Positions 400 through 50,455 of a DNA stretch of 64,000 nt are shown here, piece after piece. The stretch is from a virus. Made by a program: the position numbers and the translations under genes. The DNA is taken from UHGV virus genome UHGV-0332176. One strand, 5' to 3'. Positions within the stretch are counted from its first letter, which is position 1. Each line of letters opens with the position of its first letter. The notes beneath the pieces were generated by a model, which was given only the letters and a program-made list of their open reading frames with translations, did no database searches and was not told the origin of the DNA.

Positions 400-830
400 A
401 ATTGGTATTATTAACCAATAGGAAGCCTTTTTAAGGCAATGAGAGTAACCAATCTTTCTTTTGATATATTATAATTTGTTGTTACTTGAATAATGGGTCG
501 CCAGCCCATAAAAGTATACAGATGATAAACTGAAAAGTTTTGAAGGTAGTTGTGAGTAATATGAGCATAAGGTTGAAATAGCCACAGTTGGATAACTGTG
601 AGTGACGTAAGAACCAGACAAATCGTGGTTGAAGAATCTGATGGCTGTATCTGGTTGGGAGTAATCAATCTCCCCATCTATTAAGCAAAGGAGTAATTAA
701 CCTTTGTGGATGTGACTGAATAATGTGTGAATATGAGGGGCTTGTCGGTAGTCAGGAGTCCGACCAACAAATTATAACAGTTTGTGGCAGTCGTTCTGTT
801 AAAAACTCTGCCTTTTTATTTAAATTGATA
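400..830 (+). ncRNA. candidate structured non-coding RNA of unidentified family
   Basis: About 430 nt with GC near 40% against a 27% background, downstream of the promoter at 269-297. No credible ORF. Local hairpins include gggag/ctccc (about 652-675) and gtcgg/ccgac (about 744-768). Confidence 0.3.
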
Positions 831-900
831 GTAAGAAAAAGATTTACATAGATTAATTTTTGGTATTAATAACAACAAATTTTTTTCAGGGTTCTTCAAT
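826..900 (+). ncRNA. repeat module 0: GATAGTAAG box, 9 nt, TACATAG box, short insert, gttcttc box
   Basis: Degenerate copy of the AATAGTGAG-N9/10-TACATAG ... ATGTTCTTT module found six times between 826 and 2330. Confidence 0.3.
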
Positions 901-916
901 TTAAATAAAAATTGCG

Positions 917-1030
917 AATAGTGAGTTATTAGATTTACATAGCTAAATTGGTTAAAGCATCAAATTGTTAATTTGAGTATTGTAGGTTCAATTCCTACTG
1001 TAAACACAATCTAATAGAATGTTCTTTCGC
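917..1030 (+). ncRNA. repeat module A: conserved boxes plus a covarying flanking stem (tattagatt/aatctaata) enclosing a tRNA-like domain
   Basis: AATAGTGAG at 917-925 and TACATAG at 936-942. A 9-bp stem 927-935/1009-1017 flanks the tRNA-like element, with a 3' bulge CACAAT. ATGTTCTTT box at 1019-1027. Confidence 0.5.
933..1006 (+). tRNA. tRNA or tRNA-like with anticodon GTT (Asn) and A1.C72 mismatch, embedded in module A
   Basis: Hand-folded cloverleaf: acceptor 933-939/999-1005, D arm gcta..agc, anticodon stem tcaaa/tttga with loop ttGTTaa, T arm gtagg-ttcaatt-cctac. Confidence 0.5.
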
Positions 1031-1079
1031 TTTTTATTATTTTGACATTTTTAATTAAATGTTTTATAAATAAATTTAT

Positions 1080-1165
1080 GGAAGGCAACTGGCTGGATGA
1101 AGACACCGACTTGAAATCGGCTGGGCAGAGATGCTTTGGGGGTTCGAGTCCCTCGCCTTCCGCCA
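1080..1165 (+). tRNA. tRNA-Ser(UGA), class II with long variable arm and encoded CCA
   Basis: Acceptor ggaaggc/gccttcc, anticodon loop cTTGAaa (hand-folded), long variable arm, T arm ggttcgagtcc, 3' GCCA. Confidence 0.7.
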
Positions 1166-1182
1166 TTTTTTTGAGAAAAAAT

Positions 1183-1569
1183 ATGAAATGTTTAAATTGT
1201 GGTAAAGAAATATTTGATAAAAAACATAAAAATAGAAAATATTGTTGTAATAAATGTCAAAAAGAATTTGAATGGAAACAAACAAAACAATTAATTGAAA
1301 TTTATAATACATATCAATTAAAAAATTATAATGAATATACTGCAAGAAGGACAGCTAAAAAATATTTAATTGAAAAATATGGAAATAAATGTAGTATTTG
1401 TGGAACGACTCATTGGTTAGGAAAACCAATTTTATTAATTGCTGACCATATAGATGGAGATGCCACAAATAATTCAATAAATAATATTAGACTTATTTGT
1501 TCTAATTGTGATGCTACATTAGATACATATAAAGCTAAAAATAAAAGTACAAGAACAAGTCGTAAGTAG
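1183..1569 (+). CDS. HNH homing endonuclease, inserted between two tRNA genes
   Basis: Zn-ribbon CxxC pairs and the HNH motif ADHIDGDATNN...NIRLICSNCDA. The ORF-track start at 1042 runs through tRNA-Ser, so the first plausible ATG is 1183. Confidence 0.7.
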   Translation: MKCLNCGKEIFDKKHKNRKYCCNKCQKEFEWKQTKQLIEIYNTYQLKNYNEYTARRTAKKYLIEKYGNKCSICGTTHWLGKPILLIADHIDGDATNNSINNIRLICSNCDATLDTYKAKNKSTRTSRK

Positions 1570-1574
1570 TTTTT

Positions 1575-1649
1575 GCCTTCGTGGCTCAATGGTACAGCAG
1601 TCGATTTGTAATCGACCATTTCCTCGTTCAAGTCGGGGCGAAGGCACCA
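1575..1649 (+). tRNA. tRNA-Thr(UGU) with encoded CCA
   Basis: Acceptor gccttcg/cgaaggc, anticodon stem gtcga/tcgac with loop ttTGTaa, T arm cctcg-ttcaagt-cgggg, ACCA 3' end. Confidence 0.75.
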
Positions 1650-1876
1650 ATTTTTAAGAGCTGACAAGCTGTTCCGCTTCTTATATTAAATAATATATAG
1701 CTTCTCGAACAGCGTTTTAATAAACTCTCCCGCTAAAGATACTTTGTGTATACAGCGAATATGGATAAACGTTAAATCGTTTTAATAACTATAATATAAC
1801 ACGTGTGAAAAAGTTATTATGAGTAAAGAGTTTTCATCAATCTCTATAAACAAAATTGATGAAATTATTTAAATGG

Positions 1877-1957
1877 TAATAGTGAGAAATAGATTTACAT
1901 AGATACTAACATTCAAACTGTTACAATATTAAAGAATCTATTAATATGTTCTTTACC
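1877..1957 (+). ncRNA. repeat module B: short module without a tRNA-like insert
   Basis: AATAGTGAG 1877-1885, TACATAG, covarying stem aatagatt/aatctatt, terminal AATATGTTCTTT. Confidence 0.4.
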
Positions 1958-1973
1958 AATTAAATAATTTTGA

Positions 1974-2045
1974 CAATAGTGATATAAAGAATTACATAGA
2001 TAACTGATTATTATCTGCCAGAAAATATTTCTTTATTATTATTCT
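1974..2045 (+). ncRNA. repeat module C, variant
   Basis: CAATAGTGAT box, TACATAG box, stem aaagaat/attcttt. Confidence 0.35.
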
Positions 2046-2065
2046 TTGTCATATAAAAAATTAGC

Positions 2066-2200
2066 AATAGTGAGAGAAAGATTTACATAGGCTTGTAACC
2101 CGTAGGTAATTGGTTCGAATCCAATCAGATGAATGAAAATTCATTTGTAGCTCATATTGGTAGAGCAACGAAAAAAAGAATCTTTCAATATGTTCTTTGC
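2066..2200 (+). ncRNA. repeat module D: circularly permuted tRNA-like domain, ordered anticodon arm, T arm, 3' acceptor, loop, 5' acceptor, D arm, enclosed by a covarying stem
   Basis: AATAGTGAG 2066-2074 with stem gaaagatt/aatctttc. T arm attgg-ttcgaat-ccaat, then cagatga pairs with the downstream tcatttg (acceptor-like), then D arm gctc-atattggta-gagc. An upstream anticodon-like arm atagg-cttgtaa-cccgt is present. Confidence 0.5.
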
Positions 2201-2217
2201 TTAATAAATTTTTTGGT

Positions 2218-2330
2218 GATAGTGATTAATTAGGTTTACATAGTGAAATGGTTAACACATTTGTCTTGAAAACAAAGAAATGCAGGTTCGAGTCCTGCTG
2301 TAAATAACACCTAATTTTTTGTTCTTCACC
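2218..2330 (+). ncRNA. repeat module E: boxes plus covarying stem (aattaggt/acctaatt) enclosing a class-I tRNA-like element
   Basis: GATAGTGAT box, TTACATAG box, 8-bp flanking stem 2228-2235/2309-2316, bulge ATAAC, gttcttc box. Confidence 0.5.
2234..2306 (+). tRNA. tRNA-like with anticodon UGA but a short variable arm, so class I rather than the class II expected for Ser; probably a tRNA-mimic domain rather than a decoding tRNA
   Basis: Acceptor gtttaca/tgtaaat, anticodon stem tttgt/acaaa with loop cTTGAaa, T arm gcagg-ttcgagt-cctgc, all hand-folded. Confidence 0.4.
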
Positions 2331-2343
2331 TAACATTTTGCAA

Positions 2344-2372
2344 CCCAAGAACATATGTTCTTGGGTTTTTTT
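2344..2372 (+). terminator. rho-independent terminator closing the RNA island
   Basis: cccaagaac-atat-gttcttggg hairpin followed by T7. Confidence 0.6.
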
Positions 2373-2385
2373 ATTAAATAAATTC

Positions 2386-2414
2386 TTGACATATTTTATT
2401 TAATATGTTATAAA
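2386..2414 (+). promoter_or_regulatory. sigma70-like promoter upstream of the Ro60 gene
   Basis: TTGACA 2386-2391, 17-nt spacer, TG-n-TATAAA 2406-2414. Confidence 0.5.
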
Positions 2415-2454
2415 CAGGAATGTAAATTAACCTTAACTTATGGAGTGTTGAAAA

Positions 2455-3744
2455 ATGAAAACAAATAAAGCAATTAAAAAAGACCCAGTATATACTTATG
2501 AAGGTGGTAAAGCATCTCATATTTCTGAATTAGAAGAACTTAAAAGAGCAACAATGTCTTGTTTGCTTTGGGAAGATAATTTCTATGAAGATGGAGTATC
2601 TATTGCAGATAGAATTACCTCATTAGTTAAGGCTTGTATAGATAAAGGTCATTATGATGATGTTATTGATATTTTAAAGAAAGTTAAATTTGATATGAAA
2701 ATTCGTCATTGTCCTTTATGGATGATTGTTGCAATTTATAAAGCTGGTAAAACAATTTCTAAAGATGTTATTGCATCTATCTTAACAAGACCTGATGATA
2801 TGGGTGAATTGCTATCTTTATATAGAAAAGATAATGAAAAATCTCCTATTCCAAATGCTATTAAGAAAGGTATGGCTATTGCATTACAAAAATTTGATGA
2901 ATATCAATTAGCAAAATGGAATCGTAATGCAAATTATAAATTAGTTGATATTGTTAATATTTGCCATCCAAAGGTAACTGAAGCTATTGATAAATTAGTT
3001 AAAGGTACTTTAGAAACTCCTAAAACTTGGGAAGTTTTACTTTCAGCAGCAGGTTCAGATAAAGAAAAGAAAAAAGATGCTTGGAATGAATTAATTGAAT
3101 CTAATAAATTACCAGATATGGCTTTATTAAAGAATATTCGTGGTATGCTAGAAAGCGGTGTATCAAAAACTGTTATTGTTGATAGAATTAATATGATTAA
3201 AAGTGGTCGTTTACTACCAATTGATTATATTAGAGCTGCAGAAAATAATCCATCTTTAGAAAATGAAATTGAAAAGAAATTTCTAAATTGCTTTGAAAAA
3301 CCATCATTATACGGTAAAACTGCAATTCTTGTAGATGTTTCAGGTTCAATGGATGGTGAACGCTTAAAATATGCAAATGCATTGGCAATGATTGGACGTG
3401 AAATGTGCTCAGAAGTTGATATATATTCATTCTCTGATTATGTTAAATTTGTACCAAATCGTAGAGGTTTTGCATTAGCAGAAGCTATTGATAAATCTCA
3501 AACTCATTGGGGAACTAATATGTGGGATGCTATTACTGAAGTTGAAAAAGGACGTTATGATAGAATTATTGTTGTAACTGATGAACAAACTATGGGTAGT
3601 CCTCATAATGCTAAAATTAAAAATGCATATATGATTAATGTGGCATCTTATTCAAAAGGTGTTGGATATAACAATGGTTATAAACACATTAATGGTTTTT
3701 CAGATAAAGTATTCAATTACATTTCTGAAATTGAAAATGTATAA
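2455..3744 (+). CDS. Ro60/Rsr-like protein with TROVE-like N-terminal region and C-terminal vWA domain (MIDAS DVSGSM)
   Basis: 429 aa. vWA motif ILVDVSGSMDG plus later SFSD / TDEQ elements. The alpha-helical repeat-like N-terminal two-thirds is consistent with TROVE. It follows the tRNA-like RNA module array. Confidence 0.6.
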   Translation: MKTNKAIKKDPVYTYEGGKASHISELEELKRATMSCLLWEDNFYEDGVSIADRITSLVKACIDKGHYDDVIDILKKVKFDMKIRHCPLWMIVAIYKAGKTISKDVIASILTRPDDMGELLSLYRKDNEKSPIPNAIKKGMAIALQKFDEYQLAKWNRNANYKLVDIVNICHPKVTEAIDKLVKGTLETPKTWEVLLSAAGSDKEKKKDAWNELIESNKLPDMALLKNIRGMLESGVSKTVIVDRINMIKSGRLLPIDYIRAAENNPSLENEIEKKFLNCFEKPSLYGKTAILVDVSGSMDGERLKYANALAMIGREMCSEVDIYSFSDYVKFVPNRRGFALAEAIDKSQTHWGTNMWDAITEVEKGRYDRIIVVTDEQTMGSPHNAKIKNAYMINVASYSKGVGYNNGYKHINGFSDKVFNYISEIENV

Positions 3745-4068
3745 ATATTATTAACAAACCCGATAGGCTTCTTATTTAATTGAGTAGTATGGGTATATTA
3801 GATGACTTAATGCTCACTCCCCTCTGCTACTCTTTAAATTAAATATAGCACAATTATCTTTCTGGAATTGACCAGATAAGTTTATTAAAATTCCTAGGTT
3901 AAATTAATAAATGGGTAGATTTATAAAATTATCCTAAACACGCTCTGATACTTTAATAGTATTAACGCTTATTATATGAGATTACATATAACAATTATAA
4001 TTTCAGCTGTTCAGTTATAATTGGGATATTGGATTTAATCAATTTAACAAGAGAGATTAATTTCTTTC

Positions 4069-5399: not shown

Positions 5400-5733
5400 A
5401 AAGAAAAATATTTTTAAAAAGATATTGTATTTTATTATAATCGTTGGTACTCTTATTTTAGGATTATCTATTAGTGATGCAAATGCTAAATATGTTATTG
5501 CTTCTCAATATTCTTTTGATACAGACACATTTGCACAAATTTTAGAGATATGTGAAATGAAAGGTTGTCAACTTAAAGGTAATTTGGTTTATAATTCTTA
5601 TGGAAAATATTTACAAGTATTAATGGATTGTCCATACATATTTGATTATGAATATATAACAGAAAAAATGTTTGAATATTGGTCACACGATATAGAAATT
5701 AAATTGCCACAAGATATATCTAAATTTCTATAA
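5389..5733 (+). CDS. hypothetical protein with N-terminal signal or transmembrane segment
   Basis: Hydrophobic stretch ILYFIIIVGTLILGLSISDANA. Confidence 0.45.
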   Translation: MLAKKKNIFKKILYFIIIVGTLILGLSISDANAKYVIASQYSFDTDTFAQILEICEMKGCQLKGNLVYNSYGKYLQVLMDCPYIFDYEYITEKMFEYWSHDIEIKLPQDISKFL

Positions 5734-5743
5734 ATATGAATAC

Positions 5744-5832
5744 GAATGGTGGATGTAGTCAAGTTGGTCGAAGACGTTAGATTGTGGCTCTAATACATAA
5801 GAAACATCGTGGGTTCAAATCCCACCATTCAC
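5744..5832 (+). tRNA. tRNA, class II with long variable arm; isotype not resolved by hand-folding (anticodon-loop candidate ttGTGgc)
   Basis: Acceptor gaatggt/accattc, T arm gtggg-ttcaaat-cccac, variable arm of about 15 nt. The anticodon stem ttaga/tctaa found by hand is ambiguous. Confidence 0.5.
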
Positions 5833-8778: not shown

Positions 8779-8948
8779 TGACAAAATATAAATGTATATA
8801 TGGTTTTACAGAAAAAATAATTGAAGCATCTGATGAAGATGAAGCCAGAGATGAATTTGCATATAATTTTATTGAAAATGAAGATGAAATAAATGATTTT
8901 TTATTACAAGATATAAAATTTTGTACAAAAGTTGAGGAATGCGAATAA
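8778..8948 (+). CDS. small acidic hypothetical protein, not in the ORF track
   Basis: ATG at 8778 overlaps the upstream stop (ATGA) and the frame is open to TAA at 8946-8948; 56 aa. Confidence 0.3.
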   Translation: MTKYKCIYGFTEKIIEASDEDEARDEFAYNFIENEDEINDFLLQDIKFCTKVEECE

Positions 8949-9424
8949 TGTATAAATGGGAAATGAATATTATTAATGATTTTAATAATGAAAAATATAA
9001 ATGGTTATCTAATTTTTATCCTTCAAAATTTATTGCTAATGGTAAGGAATTTTGTAGTGTTGAACAATATTACCAATATGAAAAAGCAATAGAATTTAAT
9101 GATTTTGAAACTGCTGATAAAATTCTTAATACTTCTTCACCAGGTAAAGCTAAATCATTAGGTCGAGATGTTAAAAATTTTGATGATTTAGTATGGAATA
9201 AGTATAAAATTAATATAATGAAAGATGGATTATATGCTAAATTTACACAAAATTCTGAATTATATAATTTATTATTATCAACAGGTTCTTCTATAATAAT
9301 TGAAGGTAATCTATGGCAAGATACTTTTTGGGGTGTTGTAAATGGTGAAGGGCAGAATAATTTAGGATTACTATTAATGTTATTGAGAAATGAATTAAGA
9401 ATGTTAAAGGAAAATGAATGTTAA
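8939..9424 (+). CDS. NADAR (YbiA/DUF1768) domain protein
   Basis: Pattern WLSNFYPS...FCSVEQYYQYEKA...GRDV..F....W......M..YAKFTQN.ELYNLLLSTG...IIEGN..D..WG.G..G.G.N.LG.LLM.LR. Confidence 0.65.
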   Translation: MRIMYKWEMNIINDFNNEKYKWLSNFYPSKFIANGKEFCSVEQYYQYEKAIEFNDFETADKILNTSSPGKAKSLGRDVKNFDDLVWNKYKINIMKDGLYAKFTQNSELYNLLLSTGSSIIIEGNLWQDTFWGVVNGEGQNNLGLLLMLLRNELRMLKENEC

Positions 9425-11045: not shown

Positions 11046-11278
11046 TGAATTACTTAAATATTAAAATGCCTTATCCAATGCCAGATGATTATAATATAGA
11101 ATTGGAAATTGGTGATTATATTGTTAAAGATAAAAATGGTGAATTCTTTATTGATAGTTGGGTAGATAATATAATGGGATTTTATTGTTGGGAATTGGAT
11201 GCCTTATCAGAAATCGTATGTAAATTACCTTCTTGTGAAGAATTACTTAAAATTTTGGAGAAAGAATATGCAGAATAA
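11045..11278 (+). CDS. hypothetical protein
   Basis: ORF. Confidence 0.4.
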   Translation: MNYLNIKMPYPMPDDYNIELEIGDYIVKDKNGEFFIDSWVDNIMGFYCWELDALSEIVCKLPSCEELLKILEKEYAE

Positions 11279-11717
11279 AATTTTAGATGAATATAAAAAA
11301 GCTGTCAAAGAAAATGATTTTTGGAGAAAGAAAGTTTTAACTACTTTACGCTCTGAAATTAAAAATATGGAAATTATGCTTCGTCCAAAAAATTTAACAC
11401 CAACTGATGCAGATATTCTTTGTGTTATTCAAAAAATTATTAAACAAGATAAAGAAGCACTTGGTATGTTTATTGAAAGTGGACGACAAGATTTGATTGA
11501 TGCAACTAATACTGAAATTACAATTCTTGAAGAATTTTTACCAACACAATTAACAAATGATGAAATTGATAATATCATCAAACAAGAAATTGAAAATAAT
11601 AGCTATTCATCAATGAAAGATATGGGCAAATTGATGGGATATTTTAAGAATAATTATTCTGGTCAATGTGATATGGGATATGTATCTAAGAAAATTAAGG
11701 AGATGTTAAATGGATAA
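11268..11717 (+). CDS. GatB/YqeY domain protein
   Basis: Motifs LRSEIKN, KQDKEALGMFIESGRQDLIDATNTEITILEEFLP and MGKLMGYFKNNYSGQCDMGYVSKKIKEML match the YqeY pattern. Start taken at ATG 11268. Confidence 0.6.
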   Translation: MQNKILDEYKKAVKENDFWRKKVLTTLRSEIKNMEIMLRPKNLTPTDADILCVIQKIIKQDKEALGMFIESGRQDLIDATNTEITILEEFLPTQLTNDEIDNIIKQEIENNSYSSMKDMGKLMGYFKNNYSGQCDMGYVSKKIKEMLNG

Positions 11718-13789: not shown

Positions 13790-14332
13790 ATGGAAGAATG
13801 GAAAGATATAAAAGGATATGAAGGTTTATATTTAATTAGTAGTTATGGTCGTTGTAAAACAACAAATTTTAGACCTGGTTATGGTCGTATACCAGAAAGT
13901 TCAGAATGTATTTTAAAAATTGAAAATCCTGATTATCATCAAGGATATGCTCTTGTATCATTATCTAAAAATGGAAAAAAGAAAAAATTTAGAATACATA
14001 GATTAGTTGCTGAAGCATTTATTCCAAATCCTAATAATTATCCGTGTGTTAATCATATTGATGGAAACAAATTAAATAATAATGTTAATAATTTAGAATG
14101 GTGTACAGAAAAGCAGAATATGGAACACGCTGCTAAATTTAATTTAGTTAATCGTGGAAAACGGCAATATGTTAAACAATTAACATTAGATGGTAAATTA
14201 ATAAAAATTCATAAATCAATCAGAGAAGCATCTCGTGAAACAAATATTTGTAGAGATTCTATTACTAAATGTTTAAAAGGTAAGCAAAAACAATGTGGTA
14301 ATTTTAAATGGGAATATGTAGAAAATAAATAA
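13790..14332 (+). CDS. HNH homing endonuclease with an N-terminal NUMOD4 motif
   Basis: WKDIKGYEGLYLISSYGR (NUMOD4) and VNHIDGNKLNNNVNNLEWCTEKQN (HNH_3). Confidence 0.7.
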   Translation: MEEWKDIKGYEGLYLISSYGRCKTTNFRPGYGRIPESSECILKIENPDYHQGYALVSLSKNGKKKKFRIHRLVAEAFIPNPNNYPCVNHIDGNKLNNNVNNLEWCTEKQNMEHAAKFNLVNRGKRQYVKQLTLDGKLIKIHKSIREASRETNICRDSITKCLKGKQKQCGNFKWEYVENK

Positions 14333-45820: not shown

Positions 45821-46336
45821 ATGGCATTATATCTCGGAAGTAATGAAGTTTCTCAAAAAGTTTTATTATTAGGTGGAAATAAAAGTGATATAGAAGTTGG
45901 TGATTTATGTTATTCATTAAGAACAGAAAAAGAAGGATGGTTATTATGTGATGGAGCAAGTTATTCAACAACTGATTATCCTGACTTATTTGCTGTAATT
46001 GGTTATACTTTTGGTGGTTCAGAAAATAATTTTAACGTTCCAAATTATAAAGGTAAATTTCTTCAAATGATTAATGATAATCAAACAATAGGTCAAAATA
46101 TTGAAGCTGGTTTGCCTAATATTACAGGTAATTTTAGTGCATATAATAATGCTGGTATAGATACTGCTAATGGGTCATTTTATTTATCTAATGCACAACA
46201 TATAAACTATGCTGGTAGGTCAGAAAGAGATACATATCTTTGTAATTTTGATGTATCTCGTTCTTCTTCAATATATGGAAAATCAAATACAGTACAACCA
46301 CCTGCTTCTATTGTTAATTATTTTATCAAATATTAG
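45821..46336 (+). CDS. phage tail-collar domain protein, paralogue of 38035-38559
   Basis: LCDGASYSTTDYPDLFAVIGYTFGG; C-terminus NTVQPPASIVNYFIKY nearly identical to 38035. Confidence 0.65.
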   Translation: MALYLGSNEVSQKVLLLGGNKSDIEVGDLCYSLRTEKEGWLLCDGASYSTTDYPDLFAVIGYTFGGSENNFNVPNYKGKFLQMINDNQTIGQNIEAGLPNITGNFSAYNNAGIDTANGSFYLSNAQHINYAGRSERDTYLCNFDVSRSSSIYGKSNTVQPPASIVNYFIKY

Positions 46337-46422: not shown

Positions 46423-46767
46423 AAACAAAGCTCCCAAATGGGAGCTTAACTTATTTATGTATTATTTCAGTCGCAGTCATTTCTGTTGCAAGGATAACTG
46501 TTTCCCCACTAAACATAAAAGCATTCATCCGTTAGGATTAAGCAGCAATTACATTATAGTTATAGTTAACGTTTTCGTTAGCATTCATTTTATTTTGAAC
46601 CGATATTGGTGGTATCTCGCCAGGTACATTATAGCCATTTTCAATAATGTTCAAAATTCCGTCCGCCCCTAATACATTGATTTTTCATAATATTTTCCTG
46701 GTGGAGCGGCTGGGAGTTAAACCCAGGTCACTATCATTTACTTTGGGATAATTTATCAGCACCATTC
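46423..46767 (-). ncRNA. ssrA: circularly permuted two-piece tmRNA precursor: acceptor piece, then about 29 nt of intervening sequence, then coding piece
   Basis: Minus strand. The acceptor piece ends with T arm ctggg-tttaact-cccag, 3' acceptor ccgctcc and ACCA (to 46699). The coding piece begins with GGGGCGG at 46669, which pairs with ccgctcc through a G3.U70 wobble. Tag ORF 46581-46537 reads GCT AAC GAA AAC GTT AAC TAT AAC TAT AAT GTA ATT GCT GCT TAA (ANENVNYNYNVIAA*). The terminator hairpin gctcccatttgggagc plus T-run ends at 46423. Confidence 0.75.
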
Positions 46768-46774
46768 AAAATTA

Positions 46775-46803
46775 TTTATAAATTATTTTATTTTAATTGT
46801 CAA
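46775..46803 (-). promoter_or_regulatory. sigma70-like promoter for the tmRNA gene
   Basis: On the minus strand: TTGACA (plus coordinates 46803-46798), 17-nt spacer, TATAAA (46780-46775). Confidence 0.5.
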
Positions 46804-46864
46804 TAAAATAATTTAGGACATAAATACAGTTATAAGCAATTCACAAATTTAATAAAGGATTATA

Positions 46865-47668
46865 ATGATATATTATGTTTATCAAATAACAAATAAAATT
46901 AATAATAAAATTTACATTGGAAAAAGAAAATATAAAGGAGAAAATCCTTTATTAGATTCATATATGGGGTCAGGAAAATTAATTAAAGAAGCAATTAAAA
47001 AATATGGAAAAAATAATTTTCAAAAAAATATTATTCAAAGTTTTGATAATGAAAATGATGCTTTTAAATTAGAAAAAGAACTTGTAACAAAAGAATTCTG
47101 TAACAGAAAAGATACTTATAATATTCACGAAGGTGGTACAGGAAGTTTTTCTCACATTAATAATAAACCAATTGAAAAAAGAGAAAATATTATAGCTGTT
47201 AGAAAATTATTAAATTCAGGAGTAAAATTTGGTGGAAAAAAATATTTTACAGAAGAAACTTATCAAAAAATTAGTAATTTTAATAAAGAACGATGGAAAA
47301 CTTGGAAAGAAAAACCAGAATTAATGCCAGATTTTTATATAAAACCTCGTACAGAAAAATTTAAACAACATTTATCAGAAATTTTTAAAGGTCAAAATAA
47401 TCCTAATTTTGGTAAACATTGGTATATTCATAAAAAAGCTATTAATATTAATGAAAAGAAAATGTTTTTTGATAATGAAATACCACAAGGTTTTATTACA
47501 GTAAAAGAATGGAAAGATTTACATAAAAATAAGAAAAATAAAGCATATGGAAAACATTGGTATAATGATGGTAAACAAAATTATTTTTTATCCCCAGATG
47601 ATGAAAAAATTAAAATATTAAGTAAAGGGCGTATTGGTACTCTTTTTAAAAAAATTGAAAGTAATTAG
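46865..47668 (+). CDS. GIY-YIG homing endonuclease with NUMOD-like repeats
   Basis: IYYVYQITNKINNKIYIGK (GIY..YIG). FTEETYQKISNFNKERW and NPNFGKHWY / AYGKHWY repeats. Confidence 0.7.
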   Translation: MIYYVYQITNKINNKIYIGKRKYKGENPLLDSYMGSGKLIKEAIKKYGKNNFQKNIIQSFDNENDAFKLEKELVTKEFCNRKDTYNIHEGGTGSFSHINNKPIEKRENIIAVRKLLNSGVKFGGKKYFTEETYQKISNFNKERWKTWKEKPELMPDFYIKPRTEKFKQHLSEIFKGQNNPNFGKHWYIHKKAININEKKMFFDNEIPQGFITVKEWKDLHKNKKNKAYGKHWYNDGKQNYFLSPDDEKIKILSKGRIGTLFKKIESN

Positions 47669-47948: not shown

Positions 47949-49298
47949 ATGAAAAGAATTAATAATTTATGGGAAGAATTTACTTCACAAGAACATTGGT
48001 TTGAAGCAAGAAAAAGAGCTTTACGAGGTAAAGTTAAAAAATATTGTGTCAAAGCTATTATGAGAAAAGGTGACGAATATTTAGAAAAAATTCGTCAAGA
48101 TGTTATTAATGGTACTTTTGAATTTAAGGGTTATAAAGAACATACTATTTATGAACCTAAAGAACGTAAAATATTTGTAGCAAGAATTGAAGAAAGAATT
48201 TATCATTGGGCATCAATGATGATTACTGAAAGAATTTTTGAACCAACATTTATATTTGATAGCTATTGTTGCCGTAAAAATAAAGGACAACATAAATGTT
48301 CAGATAAATGCAAAGAAATTGTTAAACATAATAATTATTGTTTAAAATTAGATATTTCTAAATTTTATCCAAATATTAATCATAAAATATTAAAAGAGTG
48401 TTTAGCAAGAAAAATTAAAGATATAAGATTTCTCAATGCTTTATACGCAATTATTGATAGTCATAATAAGGATACTGGAAAAGGTATTCCAATTGGTAAT
48501 TATTCTTCTCAAATTTTTGGAAATATTTATATGACTAAATTAGATATGTTTGTTAAGCACACTTTAAAATGCAAACATTATTTAAGATATTGTGATGATT
48601 TTTGTTTATTTTCAAATGATAAAAAGTATTTAAATTGGTGCAAAGAAAAAATTATTGAATTTGTTACTAATGAATTAGATATGAAATTAAGCAAATGTGA
48701 TTTATTTAAAACTAAACAAGGTGTTGATTTTGTTGGATATAGACATTTTCCTCAATATACTTTAGTTAGAAAAAGAACTGCTAAAAAAGTTAAAAAGAGA
48801 ATGTTAAAAATTCAATATAAATTAAAAAATTATGAATTAACTCAAAAAGAATTATTTAGAATGAATGGGCAAGTTGCCAGCTCATATGGTTGGTGTAAAC
48901 ACGCTGATTCTTATAGATTTATGAAAAAATATAAAATTGAAGAATGTTTAAAGGAGATTATAATGAGATATGCAGAATTTAAAAACAAATTACATACAAA
49001 TAAAATGTTATCAATGAAAATTAATGATTTTATTAATAAAGAAATAACAATAACAGGTTGGGAATATTATAAAAAGAATGATAATAATGAAGATGATAAA
49101 AATAAAGAAGCAGTTAAAACTGTTAAAATACATTTAATATATAATGGTGAAGAAAAAATTATTATAACTAAAGCATCGGTTATTATCAGAGATTTAGAAG
49201 AAATTTCACAATTAGAAAAAGAAGAAAATACAAAGATATTTCCCTTTGATGCAACATTAAAGAAAGATACTAAACGAAATTATTTTTATTTTGAATAA
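47949..49298 (+). CDS. diversity-generating retroelement reverse transcriptase
   Basis: RT motifs: EPKERKIFVA (motif 2), LKLDISKFYPNINH (motif A), GIPIGNYSSQIFGNIY (the DGR-specific IGxxxSQ form of motif B), YLRYCDDFCLF (YxDD). It has a C-terminal extension of about 110 aa. Confidence 0.85.
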   Translation: MKRINNLWEEFTSQEHWFEARKRALRGKVKKYCVKAIMRKGDEYLEKIRQDVINGTFEFKGYKEHTIYEPKERKIFVARIEERIYHWASMMITERIFEPTFIFDSYCCRKNKGQHKCSDKCKEIVKHNNYCLKLDISKFYPNINHKILKECLARKIKDIRFLNALYAIIDSHNKDTGKGIPIGNYSSQIFGNIYMTKLDMFVKHTLKCKHYLRYCDDFCLFSNDKKYLNWCKEKIIEFVTNELDMKLSKCDLFKTKQGVDFVGYRHFPQYTLVRKRTAKKVKKRMLKIQYKLKNYELTQKELFRMNGQVASSYGWCKHADSYRFMKKYKIEECLKEIIMRYAEFKNKLHTNKMLSMKINDFINKEITITGWEYYKKNDNNEDDKNKEAVKTVKIHLIYNGEEKIIITKASVIIRDLEEISQLEKEENTKIFPFDATLKKDTKRNYFYFE

Positions 49299-49372
49299 AG
49301 ACGGGCATCGCAAGGCTGCCCTGTCGTTTGCTATATGACCGCACAAGGCGGTCTAAAAAGAAAAGGATTTGA

Positions 49373-49395
49373 GTTTTACTCAAATCCCTTAGCAT
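49373..49395. promoter_or_regulatory. 9-bp stem hairpin ggatttgag-tttta-ctcaaatcc immediately 3' of the VR on the target strand; candidate DGR target-recognition hairpin and terminator. Two more GC-rich hairpins sit at 49309-49333 and 49346-49360.
   Basis: Seen directly. It lies between the convergent RT and target genes. Confidence 0.45.
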
Positions 49396-50455
49396 TAGCA
49401 GCAAGCCCCCGCACCGAGCTACCGTCGCTCAAAGTAGCACGAGAAGCGTTACAATCACGAGAACCAACCCCGCAGATAGATGAACCATCCCAAGTACCAC
49501 CAGCCCGCAAAACGAAACCTTCACCGTAAAAAGAACCTTTACCCATATCAGTATTAATAACAGTCCAACCACTTCCACCAGATGCACCAGTTGAATTTAA
49601 ATATTGCCATAAAGCACCGCAACAATCTTCTATACCATAAACAGAAATCATTCTTCTACCAGCAGTATCTACGTGTCCACCAGTTGTTACTGGGTCAGCA
49701 GCACCAGAAATAGCAGTTCCTTGATTAGAACCAAATGCATATGCAGTAAATTCATTATCATTAGCTAAATGTTTACCAACTGAAAATAAATCTTCTACGT
49801 GATTTTGATAATAACGAGTATCAGTAATTGTTGCACCAAAAACTGATTTGGTATTTAATCCAGTTCCTGATTGTAAATAAATATCACACCATTTATCAAT
49901 TACATCAATATATGCCATTCCATCAACATCAGCAAATCGTGGACGAAATGAGATACAAGATATTGAATTTGGTAATATATCGCCAGCATTATATCCAGAT
50001 AATAAATGTCCAGAAATTGTTCCAACATTAGCACATACAGTATGGAATGAAGATAACCATTGAGTATTAGATGTTGTATATCCTGTTGGAGCATCTGAAT
50101 TTAATGAACAAATTAATTCTTTATCAGAAGTAATATAAATGTAATAAGTTTTTCCAGCTTGTAAAGATGTTCCAGTATCTAAAATAGAAACGGGATTAAT
50201 TTCTTTGGCTTCATAATTTTCATAATTAACTAATTCATTATTAAAAACTAAAGGTATATTACAAGGTTCAAGAATAATTGTTGTTTTATCAAAACAATTA
50301 GTTTTACCTTCTCTAAATAATTGAGTATAAGATTTACCTTTAATTGTATTATCTAATTCTTTAATATGAACAAAACGAAATGTAGGAGCAAATCCGCCTA
50401 ATAATGTTTGTAATCCATATATACGATTAATTTGAACTTTTGAAATATCTATCAT
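49376..50455 (-). CDS. DGR target protein (C-type-lectin-fold variable protein), likely a receptor-binding protein
   Basis: The C-terminus ...GEGFVLRAGGTWDGSSICGVGSRDCNASRATLSDGSSVRGLAANAKGFE* is encoded by the VR. Confidence 0.8.
   Translation of the reverse strand: MIDISKVQINRIYGLQTLLGGFAPTFRFVHIKELDNTIKGKSYTQLFREGKTNCFDKTTIILEPCNIPLVFNNELVNYENYEAKEINPVSILDTGTSLQAGKTYYIYITSDKELICSLNSDAPTGYTTSNTQWLSSFHTVCANVGTISGHLLSGYNAGDILPNSISCISFRPRFADVDGMAYIDVIDKWCDIYLQSGTGLNTKSVFGATITDTRYYQNHVEDLFSVGKHLANDNEFTAYAFGSNQGTAISGAADPVTTGGHVDTAGRRMISVYGIEDCCGALWQYLNSTGASGGSGWTVINTDMGKGSFYGEGFVLRAGGTWDGSSICGVGSRDCNASRATLSDGSSVRGLAANAKGFE
49401..49515 (-). repeat. DGR variable repeat (VR) at the 3' end of the target gene
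   Basis: About 103 nt align with the reverse complement of the TR and mismatch only at TR-adenine positions (about 23 substitutions). The 3' end GGGGGCTTG (VR) versus GAGGGCTTG (TR) corresponds to the IMH region. Confidence 0.85.

Follow-up and report, generated by a model that had tools for sequence, protein, structure and literature searches.

The DNA analyzed here is a stretch of 64,000 nucleotides (64 kb; hereafter the window) from the virus genome UHGV-0332176, a phage of human gut origin. Close to its start lie six RNA-type modules, arranged as two tandem blocks upstream of an open reading frame (ORF) for a Ro60 homologue. All six are on the + strand and together they span positions 824-2330. 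The Ro60 ORF (2455-3744, + strand) encodes 429 amino acids, and the modules are located 125-1630 nt upstream of it on the same strand. A first-pass annotation, made without database searches, had described six modules at this locus as a candidate cluster of phage Y RNAs. All of them were recovered: the core pattern ATAGTGA-N8-12-TACATAG occurs five times in the window, where 0.01 occurrences are expected, and the sixth module begins at position 824. No ORF of at least 60 amino acids was found over the six modules.

The protein had been taken for one with a TROVE and a vWA domain. The TROVE domain (HEAT-repeat ring) was detected by Pfam PF05731 at 57.4 bits (cutoff, 23), and residues 13-427 gave a full-length alignment with the Ro60 of phage phiLo, whose structure has been solved (PDB 9KOP/9L5Y; E 1.9e-11). 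For the vWA domain, the Pfam match (VWA_2) reached 19.3 bits and stayed below its cutoff of 27, whereas the DVSGSM (DxSxS) and TDEQT motifs of the MIDAS (an adhesion site dependent on metal ions) align with the matching motifs of phiLo Ro60. As judged from these alignments, the product of 2455-3744 is a Ro60 homologue with a TROVE ring and a vWA domain. Homologues were found in 95 phage records at 33-42% identity. The carriers include RsoM2USA, the Xanthomonas Tenjo group, jumbo phages of Caulobacter and Brevundimonas, and crAss001.

The modules share one scaffold. From 5' to 3', it consists of a 5-nt arm, the 5' box UAGUGAK, a free segment of 8-10 nt, UUACAUAG, an insert that varies between modules (the head), the complement of the free segment, a further 4-6 nt, the 3' box RUUCU and the complement of the arm. 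The 5' box had been given as a fixed AATAGTGAG; it is really [AG]AUAGU[GA]A[GU] across the modules. The 3' box reads AUUCUU at 1972 and GUUCUU in the other five modules; its longer form, AATATGTTCTTT, is present only in the modules at 1875 and 2063. The complementary spacer pairs quoted for the inner helix are all correct. The outer 5-bp closing stem and a pair between the two boxes had been overlooked. In all six modules, the 5-mer just ahead of the 5' box has its exact complement in the 5-mer that follows the 3' box, and its sequence is different in each of them (ATTGA, GCGAA, GGTAA, GACAA, AGCAA and GGTGA).

Module 0 (824-900) is a hairpin-type unit with the closing stem AUUGA/UCAAU, the 5' box UAGUAAG and a 7-nt loop, UUUUGGU. 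Its minimum free energy (MFE) fold contains the closing and the upper stem. Module 1 (914-1030) is a scaffold around a complete class-I cloverleaf (933-1006) with the anticodon GUU and the 3' bulge ACAC. Two further hairpin-type units are module 2 (1875-1957; closing stem GGUAA/UUACC) and module 3 (1972-2050; closing stem GACAA/UUGUC, 3' box AUUCU, 7-nt loop CUGAUUA). Module 4 (2063-2201) is a YrlA-type unit. Its head consists of a small hairpin with the loop CUUGUAA and of a tRNA-like domain (2101-2172) permuted to the order T arm, closed acceptor-like stem, D arm; this order was found in module 4 only. Module 5 (2215-2330) is again a scaffold around a complete class-I cloverleaf (2234-2306), with the anticodon UGA and the 3' bulge AUAAC. 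The heads are therefore three plain hairpins (modules 0, 2 and 3), one permuted tRNA mimic (module 4) and two complete cloverleaves (modules 1 and 5), in agreement with the inserts proposed in the first-pass annotation. Within each block, the modules are separated by AU-rich spacers of 12-14 nt. Further members had been suspected at 1650-1860 and 3745-4068; these stretches contain neither scaffold boxes nor an Rfam match.

The two cloverleaf inserts scored 66.7 bits (933-1006) and 70.7 bits (2234-2306) with the Rfam tRNA model, and ARAGORN called them Asn-GTT and Ser-TGA. They possess the conserved nucleotides of the D-loop and the T-loop. In both modules, the acceptor stem runs on into the scaffold, a bulge of 4-5 nt stands at the place of the discriminator and CCA, and CCA is not encoded. 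The leader and trailer of the cloverleaves are base-paired within the scaffold.

To collect relatives, a protein-guided search was performed, which gave 53 further loci whose Ro60 identities range between 98% and 31%. The relatives are contigs of 190-290 kb, and the closest of them (up to 287 kb) stem from human gut metagenomes. The scaffold, the heads of which vary from 25 to 90 nt, was searched by regular expressions with shuffled and foreign-partner controls. In a scaffold-only alignment of 26 distinct units, all 13 scaffold pairs vary on both sides. Standard pairs filled 99.4% of the cells, as against 57.5% after shuffling and 34-53% with slid partners, and the covariation score was 1.115 as against 0.266, a value that none of 500 shuffles equalled. 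The claim that compensatory changes reveal an RNA helix was thereby borne out. Closure was also analyzed in units found by the 5' box alone. Among these, 40 of 43 distinct units end in TTCY and the exact complement of their own 5-mer; with foreign 5-mers, this was the case in 16 of 1694. When the upper stem was fitted in an identical way, own partners gave eight of eight pairs in 34 of 36 units, and the value for foreign partners was 14%.

In the pair between the boxes, position 2 of the 5' box meets the final nucleotide of the 3' box. In 72 distinct modules, it was A-U in 41 and G-C in 31, and neither A-C nor G-U was observed. Since both types occur inside single loci (L125 and L147), the covariation of this bridge is not merely a lineage effect. 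Seven cells of the alignment contain G-U pairs, which would be A-C mismatches if read on the other strand. ViennaRNA recovered the closing and the upper stem in most of 36 distinct units from the window and its relatives. In the conserved core, the closing stem is followed by a bulged U, one R-Y and one G-C pair, a non-canonical run and then the upper stem. A K-turn or loop-E reading of the internal loop was rejected by eye, because tandem G-A pairs are lacking at the required positions.

The scaffold follows the Ro60 gene. A same-strand module was located within 2.5 kb of Ro60 in 42 of the 58 Ro60 loci. Over these loci, 120 modules were counted on the strand of Ro60 and 3 on the opposite strand, and their density was 0.56 per kb near Ro60 and 0.009 per kb far away, a 60-fold enrichment. 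Close relatives retain the array yet gain and lose units; module 2, for example, is missing in the 86-87% relatives L121 and L122. The scaffold also occurs, with variant boxes, beside Ro60 genes that are merely about 35-45% identical to that of the window. The boxes are UAGUGAAG and AUUCU in L147, UGGUGAAG/UGGUGUAG and RUUCC in Tenjo (five units, by eye), UGGCGUAG and GUUCC in CcrColossus (about eight units, by eye), and UAGUGUAU and GUUCU in crAss001. In crAss001, the array lies downstream of Ro60; in L121, two ORFs stand between the array and Ro60. That a conserved bulged helix recurs beside such divergent Ro60 genes refutes the possibility that the boxes are a promoter/terminator pair. A scan of viral-contig DNA with ATAGTGA-N8-12-TACATAG gave chance matches, and no complete module was present among the matches listed (L001-L120).

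In crAss001 (Bacteroides phage, NC_049977; L175), a 144-nt 'tRNA' was observed at 5624-5767 (Rfam, 46.6 bits), the anticodon region of which is replaced by a hairpin with the Y-scaffold boxes in the order 3' box, 5' box. The topology is that of YrlA inverted, with open tRNA ends and a loop that closes the Ro60-type module. Two ordinary hairpin modules (5449-5528 and 5543-5616) precede it. In L132 (OLGE01013652.1), G+C-rich bacterial DNA with a CodY-like gene, tRNA-Pro and the 5' part of tRNA-Arg-TCT passes at about 2095-2200 into the 3' part of the last phage module, and the switch point lies inside a shared T-arm 20-mer, TGCAGGTTCGAGTCCTGCTG. A prophage junction or recombination at the embedded tRNA was considered; an assembly chimera via the shared 20-mer is more likely.

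The conservation of Ro60 and Y RNAs extends from bacteria to humans. The Ro60-binding motif of bacterial Y RNAs is GNCGAAN0-1G (PMC4201824). At the position of the 5' box, the loci L148, L157, L164 and L172 have this motif exactly, as UGGCGAAG. A graded series was observed at this scaffold position, from UGGCGAAG through UGGCGUAG (CcrColossus) and UGGUGAAG (Tenjo) to UAGUGAAG (L147). UAGUGAK would accordingly be placed as a derived form of GNCGAAN0-1G, in which the change of G to A at position 2 is offset by a change of C to U in the 3' box. The scaffold box UUAC matches the conserved YUAY of YrlA (PMC4201824; positions 20-23 of the Rfam model). With the Rfam YrlA model (RF02553), a match was obtained at 2101-2172 in module 4 (36.6 bits, E 2e-5 to 2e-6, model positions 23-87). 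Tenjo gave 55.9 bits and CcrColossus 42.3 bits, both under the gathering score of 69. CcrColossus is listed among the phages with YrlA-like RNAs (PMC12135203, citing PMC4201824). These results support the YrlA-like cluster put forward in the first-pass annotation. In Tenjo and CcrColossus, the Rfam alignment itself lays the first YrlA helix on the upper stem, with the 5' box just outside. We judged this placement to be an artefact and rejected it as a map of the boxes, because YUAY at model positions 20-23 corresponds to UUAC and because an exact GGCGAAG stands at the 5'-box position in L148, L157, L164 and L172. Our assignment of the scaffold boxes to the YrlA model is an inference made on this basis.

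The array was compared with known systems. YrlA (RF02553; PMC4201824, 10.1101/312249) is found in Salmonella, Mycobacterium and some phages. The window array has in common with it a same-strand position no more than a few kb from Ro60, an end-pairing stem with a motif in its 5' strand, YUAY after the stem, the permuted core of module 4, and the possibility of several RNAs per locus. Unlike YrlA, it has the 5' motif UAGUGAK, and only one head of the six is of the YrlA type. It also has a conserved 3' box, RUUCU, with the covarying bridge, whereas for Salmonella and Mycobacterium only a recognisable 5' strand is reported. In Yrn1 of Deinococcus radiodurans, the tRNA-like elements are unpermuted, with an anticodon-like arm between the D-like arm and the T arm, like modules 1 and 5, and Yrn2 resembles modules 0, 2 and 3 in being a long hairpin of the plain type (PMC4201824). 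However, Yrn1 is only partly tRNA-like (a 6-nt loop, no full D arm and no variable region), whereas modules 1 and 5 hold complete cloverleaves (67-71 bits). The Ro60-binding helix of Deinococcus is metazoan-like, unlike the window scaffold.

Another counterpart is phage phiLo, in which the Y-like RNAs Yrl1 and Yrl2 are encoded just upstream of a phage Ro60 (phiRo60) and have a stem-bulge-stem structure, as in the window (PMC12135203; 9KOP, 9L5Y). phiLo has two RNAs and the window six; CGAA in phiLo corresponds to UGAG/UGAU in the window; and tRNA-like heads are not described for Yrl1 and Yrl2. The binding of Ro60 and of host PNPase was demonstrated for phiLo by experiment, whereas for the window array it is a proposal. 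A predicted RNA with resemblance to a whole tRNA, b7a-tRNA, is associated with Band-7 and RtcB genes and occasionally with Rsr (Burroughs and Aravind 2016, cited in 10.1101/312249). It is like the window array in this resemblance and in its Ro60/RNA-repair neighbourhood. In the citing text, no Y-type scaffold is mentioned for b7a-tRNA, and no Band-7 or RtcB gene was found in the window. In crAss001, an SPFH/Band-7 gene lies about 2.3 kb from Ro60.

Based on these results, we consider it quite probable that each of the six tandem modules is a gene for a small noncoding RNA of the Y-RNA class; these RNAs would be partners of the downstream Ro60. The array would then be an uncommonly large and diverse form of the Ro60/Y-RNA partnership already known. 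It is probably transcribed from promoter-like sites at 269 and 1042 into polycistronic RNAs, like Yrn2-tRNA-Yrn1 in Deinococcus (PMC4201824), which would end at a terminator at 2342-2367. The precursors may then be cut in the AU-rich spacers to release single RNAs. The conserved basal helix is the presumed docking site of the phage Ro60, that is, the counterpart of GNCGAAN0-1G in derived form. The head would be the effector or mimic part, as a hairpin, a permuted YrlA-like domain or a whole cloverleaf. The Ro60-RNA particles might engage host tRNA-binding or RNA-decay factors during infection. There is a precedent in PNPase, which is bound by the Ro60/Y-RNA complexes of Deinococcus, Salmonella and the Thermus phage phiLo (PMC4201824, PMC12135203). 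For any specific downstream role, our confidence is much lower than for the Y-RNA identity.

Several observations weigh against this assignment. In the window 5' box UAGUGAK, two positions of GNCGAAN0-1G are changed, namely the C and one A; they belong to the CGAA core, and single-base mutations in the CGAA core of phiLo Yrl2 reduced binding 3- to 4-fold (PMC12135203). None of the six window modules reached the Rfam YrlA gathering score of 69 (the best had 36.6), and five of them gave no match at all. No module with these boxes was found in L123 and L144-L146, the Ro60 proteins of which are 59-64% identical to that of the window. With 67 and 71 bits, the cloverleaf inserts look like good tRNAs, and they could be matured as such. 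The 26-unit set had been selected for closure and its upper-stem register had been fitted; the two independent controls described above were run for these steps. The folding energies were modestly better than those of shuffled sequences (z -1.2 to -2.1), and the MFE fold of module 2 (1875) is an alternative one that differs from the scaffold. Since the energies are modest and this unit prefers another fold, the case for an RNA structure rests on the covariation.

A more specific version of the Y-RNA explanation, rather than its contradiction, is that the array is a panel of tRNA or anticodon-arm mimics on a Ro60 scaffold. The mimics would serve as decoys, sensors, or repair templates or platforms against host anticodon-loop nucleases, and the arms would be exchanged by recombination between modules and phages as host defences change. 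In its favour, anticodons differ among close relatives on one conserved scaffold. The acceptor strands do not vary among 13 distinct cloverleaf units and consist of A and U only, while the anticodons are GTT, GTA, TGA, AAC, AAT and GAT. At the position orthologous to module 1, GTT, GTA and TGA were found, and at that of module 5, TGA, AAC and AAT. The anticodon arm is the most variable part, with 0.43 differences per site as against 0.19 in the T arm and 0 in the acceptor strands. Between module 1 and its orthologue in L121, the anticodon arm differs at 10 of 17 positions and the D arm and the T arm at one each. In L142 (3167), the scaffold of unit 914 is joined to the anticodon and T arms of unit 2215. 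Because of this hybrid and the divergence of the anticodon arms, we consider that heads and arms are swapped as cassettes.

The hairpin modules of the gut clade also have anticodon-like 7-nt loops with U at position 2 (UUUUGGU, UUCAAAC, CUGAUUA, CUUUUAA and CUGUAAA in the clade, and CUUCUAA in crAss001), and Ro60/Y RNA is genetically tied to an RNA repair operon that is induced by damaged tRNAs (PMC7790460). However, U at loop position 2 is weak evidence in an AU-rich sequence, and the hairpin heads of the wider family mostly have tetraloops (GCAA, GAAA, UUCG) or irregular loops. Anticodon-loop mimicry by hairpin heads was examined as a family-wide property and is unsupported outside the AT-rich gut clade. 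The complete, unpermuted cloverleaf head was likewise found only in this gut-phage clade; at more distant loci, the heads are hairpins or follow the permuted order of YrlA. RNA ligase, kinase-phosphatase and nuclease inhibitor were all absent among the approximately 40 ORFs scanned, and the variability of the anticodon arm may be a mere lack of constraint. We regard the display of anticodon arms as unlikely. If it is true, Ro60/Y RNA gets a defined role in the conflict between phage and host over tRNA.

It was also considered whether the modules are ordinary phage tRNA genes and their remnants, with flanks that are processing duplexes for RNase III, E, P or Z, and with an incidental proximity to Ro60. 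The two high-scoring cloverleaf inserts and the tRNA-rich surroundings of the array (tRNA-Thr, His and two Leu) agree with this, and a polycistronic precursor, Yrn2-tRNA-Yrn1, is known in Deinococcus (PMC4201824). However, the scaffold is complete also in the four tRNA-less modules of the six. The phage's free-standing tRNAs are without it and their acceptor stems are G/C-rich, and the tracking of Ro60 by the scaffold in 42 of 58 loci, with its enrichment and its strand bias, does not fit an incidental neighbour. The 'Ser' and 'Tyr' versions of the cloverleaf have no long variable arm. Such class-I forms misfit the bacterial identity rules, and anticodons with A34 are unusual in bacteria. The invariant all-A/U acceptor stem under a varying anticodon, the missing long arms, A34 and the absence of the scaffold from the free tRNAs make it unlikely that the cloverleaves of modules 1 and 5 are ordinary decoding tRNAs. 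For the array as a whole, we hold the explanation by tRNA genes to be very improbable. The idea of DNA-level repeats (recombination sites, miniature mobile elements or operators) or of a cis-acting leader of the Ro60 mRNA, to which the tandem units, their inverted-repeat ends, the position upstream of Ro60 and the variable module number could point, can practically be set aside, because the stems differ in each copy yet stay complementary, because the G-U pairs and the strict strand bias indicate RNA rather than DNA structure, and because a terminator and a distinct promoter-like site intervene before Ro60 in the window, while the array lies two ORFs away from Ro60 in L121 and downstream of it in crAss001.

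Phage Ro60, phage Y-like RNAs, tRNA mimicry and the presence of more than one Y RNA per locus were already known. In the literature searched, we did not find arrays of six to eight units on one scaffold, a paired core of 5' and 3' boxes with a covarying bridge, the UAGUGAK variant, or a Y-type scaffold with a complete cloverleaf head and a fast-changing anticodon arm. If the modules are Y-type RNAs, the docking module can be described more sharply: to the closing stem are added a bulged U and two bridging pairs, of which one covaries between A-U and G-C, as well as the conserved 3' box RUUCY and the YUAY box. It is open to compensatory mutagenesis with a phage Ro60 related to a solved structure. 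Phage arrays would then hold up to about eight Y-type RNAs with one scaffold and interchangeable heads, most of which are missed by the YrlA model. They would include a subtype with a whole-tRNA head, whose anticodon arm turns over fast between phages that are nearly identical. This subtype makes it more tractable to ask why Y RNAs mimic tRNA, and the variability suggests that, in this clade, the anticodon arm is the functional end.

Three promoter-like sites were found by eye on the + strand. The first (269-297, TTGACA-N17-TATATA with TG at -14) could drive an upstream structured RNA and modules 0 and 1. The second (1042-1070, TTGACA-N17-TATAAA) precedes a tRNA-like gene, an HNH ORF, tRNA-Thr and modules 2-5, and the third (2386-2414, TTGACA-N17-TATAAA) may serve the Ro60 gene. 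At each of these sites, TTGACA-N17-TATAWA has the preceding ATGT that places TG at -14, and such sites are also present in L121 and L132. The promoter consensus scan had demanded T at position 6 of the -10 hexamer, and the site at 269 was thereby not listed. The recurrence of TTGACA-N17-TATAWA suggests a host with sigma-70-type promoters rather than Bacteroidota-type promoters. An intrinsic terminator lies at the end of the array (2342-2367, + strand). It consists of an 11-bp stem followed by a T run and is conserved in L121 and L132.

Directly 5' of module 0, within the ORF-free region 300-823, a stretch of about 350 nt (470-823) is richer in G+C (38-42%). Its conservation among the relatives is far higher than that of its flanks, and it shows a few compensatory changes. 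The sole Rfam hint was a weak match to the manA motif at 686-774 (25.8 bits). This stretch is probably an undescribed large structured RNA that is co-transcribed with the array.

The region between the two blocks contains the second promoter-like site, an unannotated class-II tRNA-like gene, the HNH ORF, tRNA-Thr and a conserved hairpin region. The tRNA-like gene (1079-1165) has the anticodon loop CUUGAAA and the 3' end GCCA. It was missed by ARAGORN and by the Rfam tRNA model, and the only match was tRNA-Sec at 31 bits, which is sub-threshold. The Streptomyces phages BRock and pSt2308 possess an unannotated stretch that is 76-81% identical to it. The conserved hairpin region (1728-1800, CUCCCGCUAAAGAUACUUUGUGUAUACAGCGAAUAUGG) follows right after tRNA-Thr and has a counterpart at 3836-3900 of L121; scaffold boxes are absent from it. 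The HNH ORF (1183-1569; weak, with Pfam HNH_3 below its cutoff) splits the array, and in L122 and L121 it is absent or swapped for a different ORF. Further ORFs of the homing-endonuclease type are located at 13790-14332 (HNH-NUMOD) and 46865-47668 (GIY-YIG-like, at or slightly under the cutoff).

In the remainder of the window, a permuted two-piece transfer-messenger RNA (tmRNA) was detected on the - strand at 46469-46807. Both the tmRNA_permuted model (87.5 bits) and the alpha_tmRNA model (77.4 bits) of Rfam matched above threshold. The region 47949-50455 is likely to be a diversity-generating retroelement. It is composed of a reverse transcriptase ORF (47949-49298; PHROG 1423, E 1.8e-101) together with an Mtd-like ORF encoded on the other strand (49376-50455; Pfam mtd_2nd, E 1.3e-10), and a tail-collar ORF (45821-46336) lies near this pair. 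A few kb downstream of the Ro60 locus, an ORF with a NADAR domain (8939-9424, 136 bits) and a YqeY-like ORF (11199-11717, 131 bits) were found.

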